55,418 nucleotides of DNA from contig JBHHZP010000002.1 of the NCBI GenBank assembly GCA_046758085.1, positions 1 to 55,418 of the forward strand, in the 5' to 3' direction. The translations under genes and the position numbers were made by a program. Below, one piece after another: positions 6,808-45,557 of the stretch. Position 1 is the stretch's first letter. Each line of letters starts with the position of its first letter. Origin of the DNA: Acidiferrobacterales bacterium (GTDB lineage Bacteria; Pseudomonadota; Gammaproteobacteria; Acidiferrobacterales; SPGG2). The notes below the pieces were generated by a model that was not told the DNA's origin, did not search any database, and saw only the letters and a program-made list of their open reading frames with translations.

Positions 6808-7833
6808 ATGCGAACCGCAGACTTCGATTACGATCTGCCGGAGGCCCTGATCGCGCAGTATCCGGCTGAGCCGCGCTCGGCCAGTCGCTTGCTGGCGCTA
6901 AACGGTCAGACGGGCGAGATCCGGGATCTGCAATTTGTTGAGCTAGCGAACGTCGTAGCTCCCGCTGATCTATTGGTGTTCAATAATACGCGCGTGATTC
7001 CGGCCCGTCTCTTCGGGCGCAAGGAAAGCGGGGGGCTCATAGAGGTATTGATCGAACGTATTCTCGATGCCCACCGAGTGCTGGCGCAGGTGCGGGCGAG
7101 CAAGCCGCTGCACGCGGGTGGGCGGGTGCTGCTGGAAGAGGACGCGACGGCGCGCGTTATCGCACGTCGGGGTAGTTTTTACGAGCTTCGACTCGAGCAC
7201 CCGGAGCCGGTAACGGGCATCCTGGAGCGCATCGGGCATGTACCCTTGCCGCCGTACATCATGCGGCCGGACGCCGCCGTTGACCGCAAGCGTTATCAGG
7301 CGATCTACGCCGACGTCCCGGGTGCCGTGGCGGCGCCCACCGCGGGTTTGCATTTCGATAATGCCATGTTTGCCCGTCTAAGATCGGCCGGGGTGGAGAT
7401 CGCGTTTGTGACGTTGCACATCGGTGCGGGAACGTTTCAGCCTGTGCGTGCGCAAGACGTTCGCGATCACCGTATGCACAGCGAGTATGTCGAGATCGAC
7501 GAGCGCGTCACGACACGCATCGGCGCGGCCAGGGCTCGCGGTGGCCGTATCATAGCGGTGGGCACGACCGTAGTGCGTGCACTTGAAACGGCGGCACGAC
7601 GAGGCCCAATCGATCGGTTTGCCGGCGAGAGTGATCTTTTCATCTATCCCGGATATCGGTTTCAGGTAGTCGATGCGATGTTGACGAATTTTCATTTGCC
7701 TAGGTCCAGCCTCTTGATGCTCGTCTGTGCATTCGCCGGCACCGCCCACGTCCTAAGGGCCTACCGCCATGCCGTGGAGCAATGCTACCGTTTCTTCAGT
7801 TATGGTGACGCGATGTTTGTAACACCGCAAGAA

Positions 7834-7848
<15 letters not shown>
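6808..7848 (+). CDS. queA: S-adenosylmethionine:tRNA ribosyltransferase-isomerase
   Basis: MRTADFDYDLPEALIAQYP, PLPPYI, AAPTAGLHF, GTTVVRALE. The last codons fall inside a heptamer repeat array. Confidence 0.95.
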
Positions 7849-9051
<1,203 letters not shown>

Positions 9052-11494: not shown

Positions 11495-12499
11495 TTGAGT
11501 TATTTCACGCAGACAAAGATTGATTTTATCGGCACCCGCAAGCTGCCGATGGCTGTGTCGGCATTGTTGATCATCGGCACCTTCGTGGCCCTGTTCACGC
11601 GCGGCCTGAACTTCGGTCTGGATTTTACCGGCGGTACGCTGGTCGAGCTGAGCTACGCAGACCCAGTAGAGGTCTCCGATGTGCGGCAGGAGCTGGCGCA
11701 AGGCGGCTTTTCCGATGCGGTGGTCCAGCATTTTGGTAATGCACGTGACGTGATGGTGCGCATACCCTTGAAAAAAGACAAAGCAAGCGCTGCCATCAGT
11801 GAGGAGGTAGTGTCGGTCCTGAGAAAGGCGCGCAACGAGATCGGTGTGGAGAGTCAGCCGGGCAAGGCGCAAAGATGTTCCGCAGGCCCCAATAGGTCCA
11901 TCGTGGACTGTCAGGTGCAGGTGCGGCGCGTCGAGTTCGTCGGCCCGCAGGTCGGCGAGGAGCTTGTGGAGAAAGGGGGGCTGGCGCTGATCTACACCCT
12001 CATCGCCATTCTGGTCTATGTGCTGTTCCGGTTTGAATGGCGCTTTGCTGTCGGCTCGATCGTTGCCGTGGCGCACGATGTCTTGATCACCTTCGGATTC
12101 TTCTCCATTACACAGATGGAGTTCTCGCTGTCCGTGCTGGCGGCCATCCTCGCCGTGCTTGGCTACTCCCTCAACGACACGATCGTCGTTTTTGATCGGA
12201 TCCGTGAGAACTTCCGGCGAATGCGCAAGGCAAACGTGGTAGACACGATGAACGCGTCGATCAACCAGACTATCTCGCGCACCATCATCACCTCCGGCAC
12301 CACGATGCTGACGGTGCTGGCCTTGTTTTTCCTCGGTGGCGAGATTATGCGTGGATTCTCGACAGCCTTGATCGTGGGGATTGTCGTCGGAACCTACTCC
12401 TCTATCTATATCGCCACGCCGACCGTGCTGGCGCTCGGAATCTCACGGGAAGACTTGCTGCCGGTAAAGAAGGAAGGTGCCGAGCCGACTCGGCCCTGA
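11495..12499 (+). CDS. secF: protein translocase subunit SecF
   Basis: IDFIGTRK, GLDFTGGT, VEFVGPQVGEEL, YSLNDTIVVFDRIREN. TTG start in the ORF track. Confidence 0.9.
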   Translation: MSYFTQTKIDFIGTRKLPMAVSALLIIGTFVALFTRGLNFGLDFTGGTLVELSYADPVEVSDVRQELAQGGFSDAVVQHFGNARDVMVRIPLKKDKASAAISEEVVSVLRKARNEIGVESQPGKAQRCSAGPNRSIVDCQVQVRRVEFVGPQVGEELVEKGGLALIYTLIAILVYVLFRFEWRFAVGSIVAVAHDVLITFGFFSITQMEFSLSVLAAILAVLGYSLNDTIVVFDRIRENFRRMRKANVVDTMNASINQTISRTIITSGTTMLTVLALFFLGGEIMRGFSTALIVGIVVGTYSSIYIATPTVLALGISREDLLPVKKEGAEPTRP

Positions 12500-16494: not shown

Positions 16495-16560
16495 CTTTAC
16501 GTTTACGATTCACGATGTACGATTTAGGATTCAGGTATCACGACTCAAGGTTCACGACTG
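16495..16560. repeat. degenerate heptanucleotide array (glyA-nrdR spacer)
   Basis: TTTACG TTTACG ATTCACG ATGTACG ATTTAGG ATTCAGG TATCACG ACTCAAGG TTCACG. Confidence 0.75.
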
Positions 16561-16561
16561 G

Positions 16562-17077
16562 ATGCGATGCCCTTTCTGTTCCGCTGAGGATACCCGCGTA
16601 GTGGATTCGCGCTTGGCCGATGAGGGCGATTCTGTGCGCCGCCGTCGCGAATGTAACTCCTGTCGCGAGCGGTTTACGACCTATGAGCGCGCCGAGCTGC
16701 GTTTGCCGCAGATTATCAAGTCTGACGGGCGGCGGGAGCCGTTTCGCGAGGACAAGCTGCGCAGTGGCATGAGTCGAGCACTGGAAAAGCGCCCCGTCGA
16801 GTCAGAGGCGGTCGAGCATGTGATCGGCCGTATCCGCCACAAGCTGCTTGCGAGTGGCGAGCGCGAGGTAGGCTCCCGGGCTGTCGGGGAATGGATGATG
16901 GAGGAACTCAAGGAGCTCGACGCCGTTGCCTATGTACGATTTGCCTCGGTGTATCGCAGCTTTGAAGATCTGAACGCCTTCAGCGAGGAGGTGGAGCGCC
17001 TGCAGAATGAGCCCAGTGCCGAGGTGCGCCGTAGGCAGCTGAAGCTTCTCCCCGACAGCAGCGACAAGGATGACTGA
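16562..17077 (+). CDS. nrdR: transcriptional repressor NrdR
   Basis: [42 protein letters not shown] zinc ribbon plus ATP-cone. Confidence 0.95.
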
Positions 17078-18170
17078 TGTGGGCCGTGATGAGGTGCACA
17101 TGGCGCGTGCCTTGCGCCTGGCGCGGCGCGGCCTTTATTCGACCGACCCCAATCCGCGAGTCGGTTGTGTGGTGGTCAAGAATGACGAAATCGTAGGAGA
17201 GGGATGGCACGAGCGTGCCGGAGAACCCCATGCAGAGGTGGCCGCATTGCGTGAAGCCGGGGAGCGGGCGCGCGGGGCCAGCGTTTTTGTCACGCTCGAG
17301 CCATGTTGTCATCAGGGACGCACGCCCCCGTGCACCGATCTCCTGGTCCAGGCACAGGTGGGGCGCGTGGTCGTCGCGATGGAAGATCCGAACCCCGAGG
17401 TTAATGGAGGAGGTCTGGCCGCACTGAAAAGCGCCGGCCTGACCGTCGAGGTCGGGCTGTTGCGTGAACAGGCCGAAGCCCTGAACCCAGGGTTCGTGAG
17501 TCGCATGCGCTGCCGTCGCCCGTTCGTGCGCGCCAAGCTTGCAGCCAGCCTGGACGGGCGCACGGCGATGCGCAGCGGTGAGAGCCAGTGGATTAGCGGC
17601 GAGGCTGCGCGTGCCGACGTGCAGCAATGGCGTGCGCGCAGCTCGGCGATCCTGAGCGGAATCGGCACGGTGCTGGCCGACGACCCGGCGCTTACTGTCC
17701 GTGACCTCCAGGCCGGCCGTCAGCCATTGCGCGTGGTAGTGGACACGCACCTCAGAACGCCTCCGAGGGCGCAGCTGTTGGCGCAAGATGGTGCCGTCGT
17801 GATCGCCACCGCCAGTAACGACGGCGAGCGTGCGCAGCGCTTGCAACAGGCGGGGGCGGAGATCGTGCGCCTGTTTGGCGAAAACGGCTCCGTCGATTTG
17901 CACAGGCTGATGAGACACCTGAGCGCGCGAGAGGTCAACGAGGTCTTGTTGGAGAGTGGTGCGACGCTCTGCGGGGGCCTGCTACAGGCGGGATTGGTTG
18001 ATGAGCTTCTGATTTACCTCGCGCCGACCTTGATGGGCGATGAGGCACGCGGGATGTTTAGGCTACCGGGCCTGGAACGTATGCAGGATCGCATTGAGCT
18101 TGAGATTAAAGACGTGCGCGCCGTCGGCCGCGACTGGCGGTTTATTGCGAAAGTGAGGCGTGAGGCGTGA
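17070..18170 (+). CDS. ribD: bifunctional diaminohydroxyphosphoribosylaminopyrimidine deaminase / 5-amino-6-(5-phosphoribosylamino)uracil reductase
   Basis: [21 protein letters not shown] deaminase motif, followed by a reductase domain. ATG overlaps the nrdR stop. Confidence 0.9.
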
Positions 18171-18240
18171 AGCGGGAAGTGTTAAGTTTCATGAAGAAAG
18201 TCTTGGAATTGCCCACTCCTTACTCCTCACCCCTCACAAG
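18153..18240. repeat. inverted heptanucleotide arrays forming a long imperfect hairpin (ribD-ribE spacer)
   Basis: Left arm: GTGAGGC GTGAGGC GTGAAGC GGGAAGT GTTAAGT. Right arm: CCACTCC TTACTCC TCACCCC TCACAAG, which is the complement of GTGAGGN units. Confidence 0.8.
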
Positions 18241-18248
18241 TGATTGAA

Positions 18249-18911
18249 ATGTTTACGGGCATTATTCAGGCAGTAGGCACGATCGCGTCGCTTGAGACAC
18301 ATGCGGATGATCGCCGGCTGCGGTTAGGCGCCGGAACGCTCGAGCTGGACGGTATTAGGCGCGGTGACAGCGTGTGCGTGAACGGTGTGTGTCTTTCCGT
18401 GCACGATCTGAGCGGCGAGTGTTTCAGCACCGATGTGTCGGCAGAAACCCTCGGGTGCACGGCATTCTCGACGCTCCGTCCCGGCGATAAGGTCAATCTG
18501 GAGAAGGCGTTAACGCCCGCGACGCCCCTGGGTGGGCACCTGGTCACCGGCCATGTCGACGGCGTCGGTGTGGTCGTGGACCGGCGAGGGGTGGGCCGTT
18601 CTGTCGCTTTTCGCATTCGCGCACCGGAGAACACCAGCAGGTATATTGCCGAGAAGGGATCCATCTGCGTCGACGGGGTCAGTCTCACTGTCAATGCGGT
18701 TCGCGGATCGGAGTTCGATGTGAATATCGTGCCGCATACGCTCGAGCAAACGACTTTGGGCGCGTTTCAGGTGGGTCGGCGCGTCAACCTGGAGGTAGAC
18801 ATAATCGCCCGCTACCTGGAGCGCCTGCTCCAAGGTGATAAGGACAGACCGGAAGGTTCAAAGATCACGGCGGAGTTTCTGTCAAAGCGCGGTTTTATCC
18901 ATGAACCGTGA
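18249..18911 (+). CDS. ribE: riboflavin synthase
   Basis: MFTGIIQAVGTI, GDSVCVNGVCLSV, duplicated domain GSICVDGVSLTV. Confidence 0.9.
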   Translation: MFTGIIQAVGTIASLETHADDRRLRLGAGTLELDGIRRGDSVCVNGVCLSVHDLSGECFSTDVSAETLGCTAFSTLRPGDKVNLEKALTPATPLGGHLVTGHVDGVGVVVDRRGVGRSVAFRIRAPENTSRYIAEKGSICVDGVSLTVNAVRGSEFDVNIVPHTLEQTTLGAFQVGRRVNLEVDIIARYLERLLQGDKDRPEGSKITAEFLSKRGFIHEP

Positions 18912-18959
18912 CCGTAATCCGTGAACCAACCGTCCAAGACGACTAGCGACTTACGAATC
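18906..18959. repeat. degenerate 6-7-nt periodic array (ribE 3' end)
   Basis: CCGTGA CCGTAAT CCGTGAA CCAA CCGT ... GACGACT AGCGACT TACGAAT. Confidence 0.55.
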
Positions 18960-24094: not shown

Positions 24095-24605
24095 TCAAGG
24101 CCCCACCGGCGAGCGTAGACGAGGACGCTTGCCGCGCACGGTCTGGCGTCACCCGGCCAGTGTCCTTGCCCTGGGACTGGGCGTGGGTGCCGTGCGCTAT
24201 GCGCCCGGTACTGCCGGAACACTGGTGGCGATCCCGCTATACGTATTGATTGCGCCGCTACCGCCAGCATGGTACGCCGCCACCGTGATCCTGTTGTTCG
24301 CCGTGGGCATTTGGCTGTGCGATCAGGCCCAACGGCTGCTGGGTGCTCACGATCATCCTGCGATTGTATGGGACGAGATTGTGGGCTACCTGTTGACCAT
24401 GTTCCTGGCGCCGCCGGGGTGGCTATGGGTGGTCGTAGGGTTTGTGCTGTTCCGTCTTTTTGATGTCTGGAAACCGTTTCCGATCAAGACCGTGGATCGC
24501 ACTATCCGTGGCGGCCTCGGTACGATGCTTGATGATGTTCTAGCTGGTATCTATGCGTGGACAGGGATTCAAGTTCTCGCTTTCTTGGCGAGGGTGTTTT
24601 TCTGA
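24081..24605 (+). CDS. pgpA: phosphatidylglycerophosphatase A
   Basis: LALGLGVGAVRYAPGTAGTL, DHPAIVWDEIVG, FDVWKPFPI. Start uncertain: TTG 24081 gives about 174 aa, and the ORF opens at ATG 24033 inside thiL. Confidence 0.85.
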   Translation: MPTTDQGPTGERRRGRLPRTVWRHPASVLALGLGVGAVRYAPGTAGTLVAIPLYVLIAPLPPAWYAATVILLFAVGIWLCDQAQRLLGAHDHPAIVWDEIVGYLLTMFLAPPGWLWVVVGFVLFRLFDVWKPFPIKTVDRTIRGGLGTMLDDVLAGIYAWTGIQVLAFLARVFF

Positions 24606-24689
24606 CTCAGGGTGATGAGTACTCGGTATAGTAGGTTGTCTTCGAATTATTGACCTCGCTATTAGCTACCAGCCACTCGCTACTGCATT
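24603..24689. repeat. heptanucleotide arrays (pgpA 3' flank)
   Basis: Right arm: CTCGCTA TTAGCTA CCAGCCA CTCGCTA CTGCATT. The left arm (TGATGAG TACTCGG TATAGTA) is only weakly complementary. Confidence 0.6.
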
Positions 24690-24915
24690 ATAGACAAAAA
24701 ATTTTGGCGTGATACCCAAGCGCCTCTAGCCTTGCCACCAGCGTGACGGCTTCGATCTTCGTCGGATTGTAGTAAATCAGCATCTGGTGTTCTTTCTCGG
24801 GATAAAGCCACGGTGCGATGACACCGGGCAGCTGGCGCAGCTTCTCATCCAGGATTTTTCTCGCCCCTGCGTCCAGCCCTTCTTTGACATGCATGAAGGT
24901 TTCCGCGATGTACAT
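24688..24915 (-). CDS. small hypothetical protein with HMA/ferredoxin-like sequence pattern lacking Cys ligands
   Basis: 75-aa ORF FMHVKEGLDAGARKILDEKLRQLPGVIAPWLYPEKEHQMLIYYNPTKIEAVTLVARLEALGYHAK. The pattern resembles beta-alpha-beta-beta-alpha-beta metallochaperones, but GMxCxxC is replaced by EGLDAGA. Confidence 0.45.
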   Translation of the reverse strand: MYIAETFMHVKEGLDAGARKILDEKLRQLPGVIAPWLYPEKEHQMLIYYNPTKIEAVTLVARLEALGYHAKIFCL

Positions 24916-25127: not shown

Positions 25128-25321
25128 CAAAGAAACGCTCCCCCGGGTCTGCGGCCGCACACCCCGCGGCTGCCCTCGCCCCAGAGCTTGACTCAGGGGG
25201 TCCGCCGAAGGGCCATCCCTGTCCCTGCGGCGGACGCACGAGATCCCTCTCGTGCCCCTGCGGGCCTGCTCTTCGTCTGCACTCGGGGCTCGGCTTGACC
25301 AAGGGGGCGAAAAACCTACCC

Positions 25322-25363
25322 CCTCACGATTCACGGATCACGGCTGACGAATCACGGTCCACG
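25322..25363. repeat. six-unit heptanucleotide array NNTCACG
   Basis: CCTCACG ATTCACG GATCACG GCTGACG AATCACG GTCCACG at a strict 7-nt period. Confidence 0.85.
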
Positions 25364-25380
25364 GGCCTGCGTCTTTGCGT

Positions 25381-40473: not shown

Positions 40474-41562
40474 GTGGCTTGGACCTTTTTAAGCGTGGCT
40501 GCTGCCAAAAAATTAGTTGACACCGGGCCTGCTCGATGCCGTTTCGCGATGCTCGTGATTGCCGTGTGGCTGGGGTTCGGCCAGGGGGGGCTGACCATGG
40601 CCGAGGCGGGCACGCGCTCGCCGATCGCGGCGGAAGACCCGGCCCTGCTCGGCTTTGACTTCGATTATGAACGATCGGCCATCCAGCCGACCGAGCGCAT
40701 CGATGGTGGGCGCGAGACGCAAGCCTACCGGGTCCGAGCGCTGGCGATTCCATCGATCGGTGAGAACGGTCAGCCCGGGAACTTGGTGTCGGCGCAATAC
40801 TACGAAAGCAAGCTCCCAGGTCGACACAGACTCGTCATCGTCTTACCGATATGGGGCGCACAGAAATTCCCGCCGAAAAACATGGCCAAGGCATTGCTGC
40901 GACACAGCAACGGTGATATGAACGTCTTGCGGCTTTTGGGCGAGAACCCGCTTATCGACTGGGCGGGAATACAGGCCGCGTCCAGCGAAAGAGAGCTCGT
41001 GGAGATCATGCAGCGCATGGTCGAACGCGTGCGGACTCATGTCATCGACATTCGCCGCTGGATCGACTGGGCCGAGAGCGAACCGGGGGTTGATCCGGGG
41101 CGAATTGGACTGGTCGGTTTCAGTATGGGCGCGAGCGTTGGCAGCCTCGTGTTGGCGAACGAACCGCGCTTTGCCGCCGGCGCGCTGGCCCTGGGCGGGG
41201 CGAACCCGCATGAAGTATTGTCGACCTGTTTTATTCGAAAGATCAAAAAAACCCGCAAGGCACTGCTGTCGCGCTTTCACTGGAGCCCACAGACCTTGGA
41301 GCAAAAAATGAAGCAACCGCTGGCACCGATCAATCCCGCCCGGTTCACGGGCACGGTCAATCCGCAGCGAATCATTATAGTGGAGGCGGGCCGCGACACT
41401 TGCATTCCTAAGAGTGGCCGTGACGCACTCTGGCACGCCATGGGGAAGCCAAGACGTGTGATTTGGCCCATCAATCACAATGTGGGTTTTCTGACCATCA
41501 CCCCCTTGGGCGGCAATATCATGGCGCGCAGGATCTTCGATTTCCTGGATCAGGTGCTGTGA
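40474..41562 (+). CDS. exported alpha/beta-hydrolase-fold protein, paralogue 2
   Basis: GFSMG (GxSxG), EAGRDTC, INHNV. Shares long blocks with paralogue 1: MVERVRTHV, DWAES.P.VDPGRIGL, QPLAPINP. Start uncertain (GTG 40474 or ATG 40549). Confidence 0.8.
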   Translation: MAWTFLSVAAAKKLVDTGPARCRFAMLVIAVWLGFGQGGLTMAEAGTRSPIAAEDPALLGFDFDYERSAIQPTERIDGGRETQAYRVRALAIPSIGENGQPGNLVSAQYYESKLPGRHRLVIVLPIWGAQKFPPKNMAKALLRHSNGDMNVLRLLGENPLIDWAGIQAASSERELVEIMQRMVERVRTHVIDIRRWIDWAESEPGVDPGRIGLVGFSMGASVGSLVLANEPRFAAGALALGGANPHEVLSTCFIRKIKKTRKALLSRFHWSPQTLEQKMKQPLAPINPARFTGTVNPQRIIIVEAGRDTCIPKSGRDALWHAMGKPRRVIWPINHNVGFLTITPLGGNIMARRIFDFLDQVL

Positions 41563-44451: not shown

Positions 44452-44478
44452 AAACCTTTGGTATTGTTCCCGAGATTT

Positions 44479-44560
44479 TTCTTGTATCTTGCAGCTGATT
44501 GTCTCTTGTATCTTGCCACTTGCATCTTGGATCTGATTTTTACTTGAATCTTGCCACTGT
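44479..44560. repeat. heptanucleotide-periodic CTTG array (hpnG-hpnA spacer)
   Basis: CTTG recurs at 7-nt steps: 44481/44488, then 44505/44512/44519/44526, then 44543/44550. Units such as ATCTTGC and ACTTGAA resemble the right arm at 7906-7933. Confidence 0.75.
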
Positions 44561-44564
44561 TTTT

Positions 44565-45557
44565 ATGAAAACTCTCGTCACAGGCGCGTCGGGTTTCATC
44601 GGCTCGGCGGTGGTACGCGGGCTGATCGCTGCTGGCCACGACGTGCGCGTGCTGCTTCGGGTGCAGAGCGATCGCGCAAATGTCACCGGCTTGCCGGTGG
44701 AGATCGTGACCGGCGATCTCACCGACAAGGTGTCGTTGGAGCGCGCACTCGCCGGCTGCCGGGCATTATTTCACGTGGCCGCGGACTACCGTATGTGGGT
44801 ACCCGACCCGGATCGGCTATACGCCATCAACGTGACCGGAACGCGCGACATCATGCAGGCCGCCATGACGGCCGGTGTGGAGCGTGTCGTCTATACGAGC
44901 AGCGTGGCGACCCTCGGCCTTCACACCAACGGTGCGCCGGCCGACGAAGATACGCCGGTAAGCCTGGCCGACATGGTCGGCCACTACAAGCGCTCGAAGT
45001 ACCTTGCCGAGGAAGAGGTCCGGCGCCTGGTACGTGCGGAGGGCCTGCCGGCCGTGATTGTGAATCCCTCGGTGCCGATCGGACCGCGTGACATCAAGCC
45101 CACGCCCACGGGGCGCATGATCGTGGAAACCATGTGCGGGCGCATGCCGGCCTATGTCGACACCGGACTGAACCTGGTGCACGTGGACGACGTTGCCACC
45201 GGCCACCTGCTGGCTTTCGAGCGTGCGCAGGTGGGCGAGCGTTACGTGCTCGGCGCGCAAAACATGACACTGAAACAAATCTTGGCCGAGATTGCCCGGC
45301 TTAGCGGCCGGCGCCCGCCGCGAATACGGTTGCCGCACGGCGTCATTCTGCCCATCGCTCATGTCGCCGAGGCCTGGGCGCGGATCACGGGCGCAGCCGA
45401 GCCGCGCGTTAGCGTCGACGGCGTTCGCCTGTCGAAAAAGACCATGTTCTTCTCGATCGAGAAGGCCAGGCGCGAGCTCGGCTTCGCCCCGCGGCCGGTG
45501 GGCGAAGCCCTGGCCGATGCCGTGCGCTGGTTTCGCGAGCACGGCTACTGCAACTGA
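44565..45557 (+). CDS. hpnA: hopanoid-associated NAD-dependent sugar epimerase/reductase
   Basis: MKTLVTGASGFIGSAVV Rossmann motif and a YxxxK site (YKRSKYLAE). Start at the internal ATG after the heptamer array. Confidence 0.85.
   Translation: MKTLVTGASGFIGSAVVRGLIAAGHDVRVLLRVQSDRANVTGLPVEIVTGDLTDKVSLERALAGCRALFHVAADYRMWVPDPDRLYAINVTGTRDIMQAAMTAGVERVVYTSSVATLGLHTNGAPADEDTPVSLADMVGHYKRSKYLAEEEVRRLVRAEGLPAVIVNPSVPIGPRDIKPTPTGRMIVETMCGRMPAYVDTGLNLVHVDDVATGHLLAFERAQVGERYVLGAQNMTLKQILAEIARLSGRRPPRIRLPHGVILPIAHVAEAWARITGAAEPRVSVDGVRLSKKTMFFSIEKARRELGFAPRPVGEALADAVRWFREHGYCN

Follow-up and report, generated by a model that had tools for sequence, protein, structure and literature searches.

A heptamer-armed hairpin between ribD and ribE of an Acidiferrobacterales bacterium as a probable gene-less member of a genome-wide population of intervening-sequence-type cassettes

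In the glyA-nrdR-ribD-ribE gene cluster of an Acidiferrobacterales bacterium, the spacer between ribD and ribE is built from two inverted arrays of tandem heptanucleotides, which raises the question of what this element is and how it came to lie inside a riboflavin operon. The locus was analyzed in a window of 55,418 nucleotides (nt), the whole stretch from position 1 to 55,418 of contig JBHHZP010000002.1 (assembly GCA_046758085.1). This is contig C2 of the genome under study (hereafter G000), a metagenome-assembled genome (MAG) of 3.94 Mb in 349 contigs, with 59% GC and 94% completeness. A preliminary description of the window had regarded such arrays as a genome-wide style of spacer, reminiscent of the heptameric short tandemly repeated repetitive (STRR) sequences of heterocystous cyanobacteria. 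Our results suggest, with a probability of roughly 0.6, that the ribD-ribE spacer is a gene-less hairpin cassette of the intervening sequence (IVS) type, belonging to a genome-wide population of hairpins with heptamer arms.

The two arms (Table 1) read as they had been described. The upstream arm, hereafter the GT arm, starts inside ribD: it encodes the last six codons of this gene (K V R R E A) and the TGA stop at 18168-18170, ribD extending 2.6 units into the array and its stop codon sitting within the third unit. The first three units supply TGA in all three reading frames, and the reverse complement of the downstream arm (the AC arm) contains TGA, TGA and TAA in the three frames. The ATG of ribE is found 8 nt past the end of the AC arm; a GTG at 18240 is also in frame with ribE, but RibE of relatives starts with MFTGI. 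Both arms were assigned period 7 by Tandem Repeats Finder (TRF), and a repeat search of the spacer returned inverted arms of 16-17 nt that are 82-88% complementary. The imperfect hairpin that the preliminary description expected from these arms was also recovered by RNAfold, which gave the spacer a folding energy of −36.8 kcal/mol (z = −4.17), a stability not reached by any of 200 dinucleotide shuffles. The predicted stem is interrupted, comprises about 30 base pairs (bp) and leaves the ribosome-binding region of ribE outside.

An intrinsic terminator, that is a GC-rich stem followed by a U-tract, was rejected because the spacer contains no such site; no promoter-like site was found in it either. 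Similarly, a known RNA family, riboswitches included, was rejected since Rfam (E ≤ 1) returned no match at the spacer and only two chance matches inside ribD. The 25-nt loop holds no open reading frame (ORF), and a blastn-short search against G000 revealed no homologue of it elsewhere in the genome.

Comparison with other lineages identifies the hairpin as an insertion. Among 40 relatives, ribD and ribE are separated by a median of 17 nt, often by only 0-10 nt, versus 78 nt in G000. Public relatives of RibE are gammaproteobacterial MAGs with at most 64% identity, save one sequence at 91% identity from a genome of the same genus (VRUB01000001; hereafter G001), in which the element is also present. 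We infer that the insertion between the ribD stop and the ribE start took place in the ancestor of the genus. These protein relatives, together with the glyA-nrdR-ribD-ribE order, support the gammaproteobacterial host that had been deduced from the sequence. The record VRUB01000001.1 is labelled 'Nitrospira sp.', although its glyA-nrdR-ribD-ribE synteny and its protein relatives are gammaproteobacterial, and this label is probably wrong. At the ribD-ribE junction of a distant gammaproteobacterial MAG (L021; JAADGZ010000193), an independent and unrelated CAAGATA/TATCTTG hairpin is present (AAGATAC... / ...GTATCTT).

To place the element in its genomic context, period-7 arrays were sought throughout G000, in which a crude codon-usage method called 3277 ORFs covering 81% of the sequence. 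In 1261 intergenic spacers of 40-250 nt, the match frequency was clearly in excess of shuffled sequence at lag 7 (z = 20.2), and was likewise raised at lag 14 (z = 7.7) and lag 21 (z = 11.8), with values of about 0 at lags 5, 8 and 13. An array detector with one fixed window (at least 19 matches in 28) identified 143 arrays at lag 7, 114 of which (80%) are non-coding in a genome that is 19% non-coding. With the same window, the control lags 4, 5, 8, 10, 11 and 13 yielded 8-14 arrays each, and lags that are multiples of 3 yielded 58-77, nearly all coding. TRF, set to at least four copies, reported 74 arrays at period 7, whereas periods 6 and 8 yielded 19 and 3, and a pattern of GT every 7 nt, repeated five times, matched 79 times in G000 versus once for its lag-8 version. 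The six further loci listed in the preliminary description all proved to be period-7 arrays, and its view of a genome-wide spacer style with several unit families is confirmed. The refuting outcome named there, a lack of excess lag-7 periodicity in intergenic regions, was not obtained.

The lag-7 signal is found in co-directional and convergent spacers, whereas divergent spacers are nearly empty, and the presence of a gene 3' end is therefore the rule of placement. Since the signal is stronger in convergent spacers, the earlier proposal that arrays sit inside operons, between co-directional genes, holds for the co-directional spacers that do carry them but does not describe a specific preference.

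Several unit families coexist, among them CAAGTnn, CGAGTnn, CGTGAnn, GTGAGGn, GGTGATT and CCAGTCT, with a conserved core of 4-5 nt and about two free positions. A stop codon (TAA, TAG or TGA) occurs on at least one strand in 81% of the consensus units versus 59% of letter-shuffled ones, and in 119 of 126 arrays more stop codons lie on the GT-rich strand than on the other. Because 7 mod 3 equals 1, three successive units give stops in all three frames. The arms have a fixed polarity. For GT arms, the complementary partner lies downstream in 32 cases and upstream in one; for AC arms, it lies upstream in 24 and downstream in three. Adjacent arrays are arranged GT-then-AC 18 times and AC-then-GT never, an arrangement that is identical when read on either strand. 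Forty of the 71 GT-sense arms start between −20 and +10 nt from the end of a stop codon, and the second (AC) arm stops immediately short of the following gene. Folding of the 18 clear pairs gives a median z of −4.7, and no T-run follows any of these hairpins. This architecture occupies about 60 unrelated spacers, convergent ones included. The class to which the ribD-ribE hairpin belongs is thus polar, anchored at stop codons and abundant in G000, and the ribD-ribE copy, a lineage-specific insertion, is an ordinary member of it, with no sign of a riboflavin-specific role. The preliminary description made no mention of the fixed polarity of the arms, the three-frame stops or the status of the hairpin as an insertion, nor of the tie to PF05635 and IVS-type elements that we describe below.

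Hairpins of the same architecture surround genes of the PF05635 (TIGR02436) family, named '23S rRNA intervening-sequence protein', whose members are Avd-like four-helix bundles and form pentamers. G000 carries a single intact gene of this family (contig C77, 7848-8162, minus strand; 131.6 bits), the product of which is weakly similar to Avd of diversity-generating retroelements. Its first arm, CGTGAGG AGTCAGG CGTGAGG TGTGAAG, belongs to the GTGAGGn family, as does the arm at ribD-ribE, and its second arm reads CTTCACT CCTCATC ... TTCTCAC ACCTCAC ACCTAAC. A truncated copy, limited to the N-terminal 47 residues, is located on contig C25; its flanks are CGTGAGGGGTGAGGCG, starting at a stop codon, and CTCACTCCTCACC. 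The ribD-ribE class of hairpins shares its architecture, and within G000 also the GTGAGGn unit, with these PF05635 cassettes.

This association extends far beyond the genome. Within the order, 10-11 of 12 PF05635 loci are flanked by arrays, with units such as CGTTAGT, AGACTCC, CAAGTnn, TTCGCCG and GAATTTT. As a negative control, none of 14 PF13366 (PD-(D/E)XK 'GxxExxY') loci in relatives is array-flanked; this family is also absent from G000 and was rejected as hairpin cargo. When 32 PF05635 genes from 32 different gammaproteobacterial families were inspected, 31 proved to have a lag-7 array no more than 200 nt away, in most cases on each side and inverted, whereas lags 5, 8, 10 and 11 gave 0-1 of 32. 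The array load of whole genomes, approximated by matches to the fivefold GT-every-7-nt pattern, follows the gene as well. In the sample of the order, the median was 48 matches in 13 PF05635-positive genomes versus 3.5 in 28 negative ones (P = 3e-5; P = 0.006 outside the home family), and matches correlated with PF05635 copy number (Spearman rho 0.66). In a sample of the class comprising 200 genomes from 198 genera, the medians were 27 matches with PF05635 and 3 without, and at least 30 matches were found in 17 of 35 positive versus 3 of 161 negative genomes (Fisher P = 3e-12). PF05635 and heptamer arrays are hence strongly associated across the Gammaproteobacteria, genomes with the gene being about 10-fold richer in arrays.

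A close known counterpart is the IVS of rRNA genes. In Coxiella, the IVS carries tandem heptamers (GACAGAT), varying in copy number among strains, ahead of an S23p ORF, and is cut by RNase III at the first repeat (Warrier et al. 2016; PMC4990558). As in the rRNA IVS with an S23p/PF05635 ORF of Coxiella and Leptospira, the ends are inverted repeats that pair into a long stem, which at ribD-ribE has about 30 bp, and tandem heptamers make up the arms at ribD-ribE, on C77 and C25 and at 31 of 32 loci elsewhere. A stem around a PF05635 ORF is what the C77 gene displays. In contrast, the ribD-ribE loop contains no such ORF, this feature being present at C77 and, truncated, at C25 only, and the element lies between protein-coding genes instead of in helix 25 or 45 of 23S rRNA. 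In view of the architecture shared with PF05635 loci, we regard the class as a non-rRNA form of the IVS-type cassette, most copies of which have no cargo.

Heptamer repeats of other bacteria resemble the arrays of G000 in part. The STRR heptamers of heterocystous cyanobacteria were described around 1990 and include units such as CCCCAGT, CAACAGT and TTGGTCA, which also contain (A/G)GT. The comparison with STRR made in the preliminary description is apt as far as the general kind is concerned, the arrays being head-to-tail, of 7-nt period, dispersed and mainly intergenic (114 of 143 non-coding), and both STRR and the long simple-sequence repeats of Mrazek 2007 are dispersed intergenic tandem heptamers of unexplained role. 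STRR belong to another phylum, the Cyanobacteria, and have other units than the CAAGTnn, CGTGAnn, GTGAGGn and further families of G000, in which arrays are short, degenerate and mostly arranged as polar inverted pairs at stop codons.

A parallel in placement is offered by the tandem heptamers GGGAATC of Xanthomonas and GGGGA(C/T)T of Nostoc, which vary in copy number, are over-represented between co-oriented ORFs and are depleted in divergent spacers and coding sequence (Rehm et al. 2015; PMC4692102). Where these repeats overlap a stop codon or lie within 50 bp of one, the sense strand is the G-rich one, their complement lies just upstream of the next ORF, and 70-75 convergent (inverted) pairs occur per Xanthomonas genome. 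G000 displays the same GT-sense arrays at stop codons, complements before the next ORF, convergent pairs and depletion in divergent spacers. It differs in having at least six unit families, most of them devoid of GGG tracts, whereas a single dominant G-tract unit was studied in those genomes, as a G-quadruplex former. The four or more G-tracts of a G-quadruplex are not found here, the units GTGAGGC, CAAGTAG and CGTGATC lacking GGG, and a link to PF05635 is not reported in PMC4692102. Finally, TAACTGA direct repeats are known from marine Beggiatoaceae, cyanobacteria and Bacteroidetes (MacGregor 2015; PMC4679880). Like the arrays of G000, they are intergenic arrays of 2-6 stop-containing units in a gammaproteobacterium, with a patchy distribution. 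They consist of a single unit, nearly always direct (one inverted in 170) and a few nt upstream of start codons, and related heptamers are not repeated there, in contrast to the other units and stop-anchored inverted pairs of G000.

Several observations weigh against reading the ribD-ribE spacer as a gene-less IVS-type cassette. Beyond the heptamers, its loop has no homology to the C77 and C25 cassettes, and descent from a gene-bearing cassette is therefore not established; the hairpin may instead have grown at the site itself, or hairpins may have come first and PF05635 genes settled in them. A search of the genome for long-loop arm pairs with cargo gave nothing beyond the known cassettes, and spread by copy-paste in the manner of MITEs (miniature transposable elements with inverted repeats) was rejected, in view also of the lack of a genomic homologue of the loop. 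The arm unit follows protein similarity only above about 70% identity, so that pitch (7 nt) and architecture are conserved rather than the word itself; co-evolution of protein and unit was rejected, as the pairs sharing a unit at 70% identity or more are probably orthologous loci. At least six unit families accompany a single intact PF05635 gene, although the genome is only 94% complete, some array-rich genomes, such as the complete genome G013, have no detectable gene of the PF05635 family, and 13 of 35 PF05635-positive genomes are poor in GT-type arrays. The arm register is not unique, since alignments shifted by 7 nt in phase are equally good, and the free positions do not co-vary between arms, which argues against strong selection for a precise stem; a precise palindrome or co-varying stem was rejected on the same grounds. 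Co-transcription, folding in vivo and cleavage by RNase III, lastly, are steps that we infer.

Could slippage alone, with no function, have produced the arrays? According to this explanation, heptamers expand in the neutral space that follows stop codons, template switching generates the inverted arms, and such spacers are simply places in which PF05635 genes land or survive. The comparison with the sister genome speaks partly for it. Contig C172 of G001 aligns collinearly with the window (about 93% identity) and carries the ribD-ribE element minus one 7-nt unit, the extra unit lying in the 5' arm of G000. The queA-tgt hairpin (7822-7935) differs from its orthologue by one 7-nt indel per arm, the array between glyA and nrdR is unchanged in length, without indels, and the array at 18906-18959 has a 13-nt indel. 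Over 50 kb of alignment, gaps affect 7-9% of array sites versus 0.6% of other spacer sites. Mismatch in arrays amounts to 0.074-0.080, compared with 0.122 at third codon positions and 0.113 in the other spacers, indicating that substitution in arrays is not faster than neutral. As the preliminary description had proposed comparing the spacers in relatives, it is relevant that arrays occupy orthologous sites in this independently assembled genome and hence are not assembly artefacts. They are vertically inherited and change through slippage of units instead of being substitution hot spots, and the ribD-ribE copy has changed mainly by gain or loss of whole 7-nt units since its insertion. Sister-genome change dominated by 7-nt indels, arms without unique register or co-variation, unrelated loops and units that drift fast relative to the PF05635 protein all agree with slippage, and polymerase slippage favouring 7-nt units has been proposed before (Mrazek 2007, as cited in PMC4679880). 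Nevertheless, slippage by itself leaves the arm polarity unexplained (18:0 for adjacent arrays, 56:4 for partner positions), as well as the enrichment of stop-containing units, the conserved 4-5-nt core with two freely varying positions across genera, and both the flanking of one gene family at 31 of 32 loci and its roughly 10-fold phyletic association. We therefore consider it unlikely as the whole explanation.

An adaptive RNA element internal to the operon, serving as a 3'-protective stem for ribD, as a processing site or in translational coupling, is less probable still. The stable fold, its extent from the ribD stop codon to 8 nt before the ribE start, its retention in both species of the genus and an array substitution rate slightly under that of third codon positions are consistent with such a role. 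On the other hand, most relatives have no hairpin and spacers of 0-20 nt, none of the arm differences between G000 and G001 at ribD-ribE forms an evident compensatory pair, the ribosome-binding region of ribE lies outside the stem, and neither an Rfam match nor a terminator was found. The occurrence of the same architecture in some 60 unrelated spacers moreover leaves nothing specific to riboflavin.

The 7-nt pitch, with its conserved core and variable positions, resembles known protein-binding arrays, and the arrays might be bound, one unit per subunit, by a multimeric protein that recognizes single-stranded nucleic acids, such as Csp, S1, a CsrA-like protein (as proposed for the TAACTGA repeats) or the PF05635 pentamer itself. 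MacGregor 2015 (PMC4679880) proposed binding of this kind for Beggiatoaceae, and the association with PF05635 would fit. We nonetheless judge it very doubtful, given that many unrelated units coexist in one genome, that lone arrays show no strand bias with respect to transcription (15 GT-sense versus 16 AC-sense) and that the unit is untied from the protein sequence below about 70% identity. Repetitive extragenic palindromic (REP) or REPIN-like elements spread by a REP-associated tyrosine transposase (RAYT; Y1 transposase), or MITEs, are hardly credible: like REP, bacterial interspersed mosaic elements (BIMEs) and REPINs the arrays are abundant, intergenic and hairpin-forming after gene 3' ends, and G000 has three Y1_Tnp matches, but the copies share only a 7-nt core with internal 7-nt periodicity, with no conserved full-length unit, fixed length or related loops, and Y1_Tnp, found in 32 of 41 genomes, among them array-free genomes that have 12-16 copies, is distributed without relation to the arrays (Spearman rho 0.23, not significant), for which reason a REP/RAYT origin was rejected.

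If the ribD-ribE spacer is indeed a gene-less IVS-type cassette, the element would be co-transcribed with the operon and would fold as an imperfect stem of about 30 bp. The three-frame stops in the leading arm would halt ribosomes reading in, from either strand. By analogy with the heptamer-bearing stems of rRNA IVS, which are cut by RNase III, the stem is plausibly an RNase III site. The element is probably near-neutral, with a small net effect on the rib operon. A broader possibility, which we put forward tentatively, is that heptamer-armed hairpins and PF05635 genes make up one widespread cassette system, with the protein acting in trans on 7-nt-periodic arms. PF05635 proteins might then promote the formation, expansion or movement of arms to sites near stop codons or, alternatively, bind the stems once transcribed and process them. 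The footprints of this activity would be the thousands of STRR-like arrays without a gene in cyanobacteria, Xanthomonas, Beggiatoaceae and the present lineage, and rRNA intervening sequences would be a special case that landed in 23S rRNA.

The features of the window are compiled in Table 1, and further loci display other states of such elements. A PF05635 cassette whose arms consist of CAAGTnn units lies between rpsI and a tRNA gene in three genomes that represent two other families of the order (G029, G037 and G015; loci L089-L091). At this rpsI-tRNA junction, G000 (contig C65, around position 11700) has only a 26-nt remnant with one-unit arms, TAGTAGCCACCAGATACTCGCTACTG. Next to the C77 cassette, a GDP-L-fucose-synthase-like ORF (C77:6701-7756, minus strand) contains two in-frame GTGAGGn arrays, at 6959-7004 and 7098-7141, encoding 'SLLTPHSSPP' and 'SRLTPHASR' in apparent loop regions; heptamer arrays can thus persist within coding sequence.

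Table 1. Coordinates of the ribD-ribE element, its flanking genes and other heptamer arrays in the window
Feature	Position	Strand	Description
ribD	17070-18170	+	Pfam dCMP_cyt_deam_1 and RibD_C; domain end at residue 356 of 366
5' arm (GT arm)	18153-18187	+	GTGAGGC GTGAGGC GTGAAGC GGGAAGT GTTAAGT; period 7
Loop	18188-18212	+	25 nt; inner mini-stem TTCATGAAGAAAGTCTTGGAATTGC (from fold)
3' arm (AC arm)	18213-18240	+	CCACTCC TTACTCC TCACCCC TCACAAG; complementary to GTGAGGn units
ribE (riboflavin synthase)	18249-18911	+	Pfam Lum_binding, two copies
Second hairpin	7822-7935	+	(CAAGTnn)n arm into upstream stop codon; (nnACTTG)n arm ends just before next ATG
Lone array, glyA/nrdR	16496-16549	+	TTTACGA / TTCACGA units; ends 12 nt before nrdR start
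Short CCGTGAn array	18906-18959	+	At ribE stop; weak complementary arm opposite; convergent spacer
Hairpin with CTCGCTA-type 3' arm	24603-24689	+	Left edge of ~800-nt segment absent from sister genome
nnTCACG array, six units	25315-25367	+	Right edge of ~800-nt variable segment
ATCTTGn arrays	44479-44565	+	Precede a start codon

Three places in the window differ more extensively from G001. The segment 24560-25366, about 800 nt versus about 97 nt in G001, has a heptamer hairpin at its left border and an nnTCACG array at its right border. It contains several palindromes and a 75-aa ORF (24688-24915, minus strand), and the three ORFs of the segment that were searched matched no Pfam or NCBIfam family. 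A 630-nt segment inside an ORF (40731-41362) is absent from G001, in which the flanks join as ...CCTACCGG followed directly by CCGCAGCG.... Opposite positions 44452-44458, G001 (C172:52408-52513) keeps about 100 nt with a CAAGATA-type arm facing the ATCTTGn arrays; this arm was either lost from the window or never present there.

To our knowledge, neither the intergenic heptamer repeats nor the small proteins encoded in rRNA IVS have an accepted origin or function, both families having been unexplained since the early 1990s. Our literature search retrieved no paper that generalizes the link between PF05635 and heptamers, only a remark on the Coxiella IVS. For annotation, the hairpin class accounts for the repeat-encoded gene tails common in G000 and for spacers running exactly from stop codon to start codon, and such hairpins should not be called terminators. 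The co-occurrence of PF05635 and arrays connects two long-unexplained kinds of bacterial DNA. If this link is causal, the origin of heptamer repeats becomes experimentally testable, and a cassette system with a trans-acting protein, if true, would provide the first functional handle on both families.

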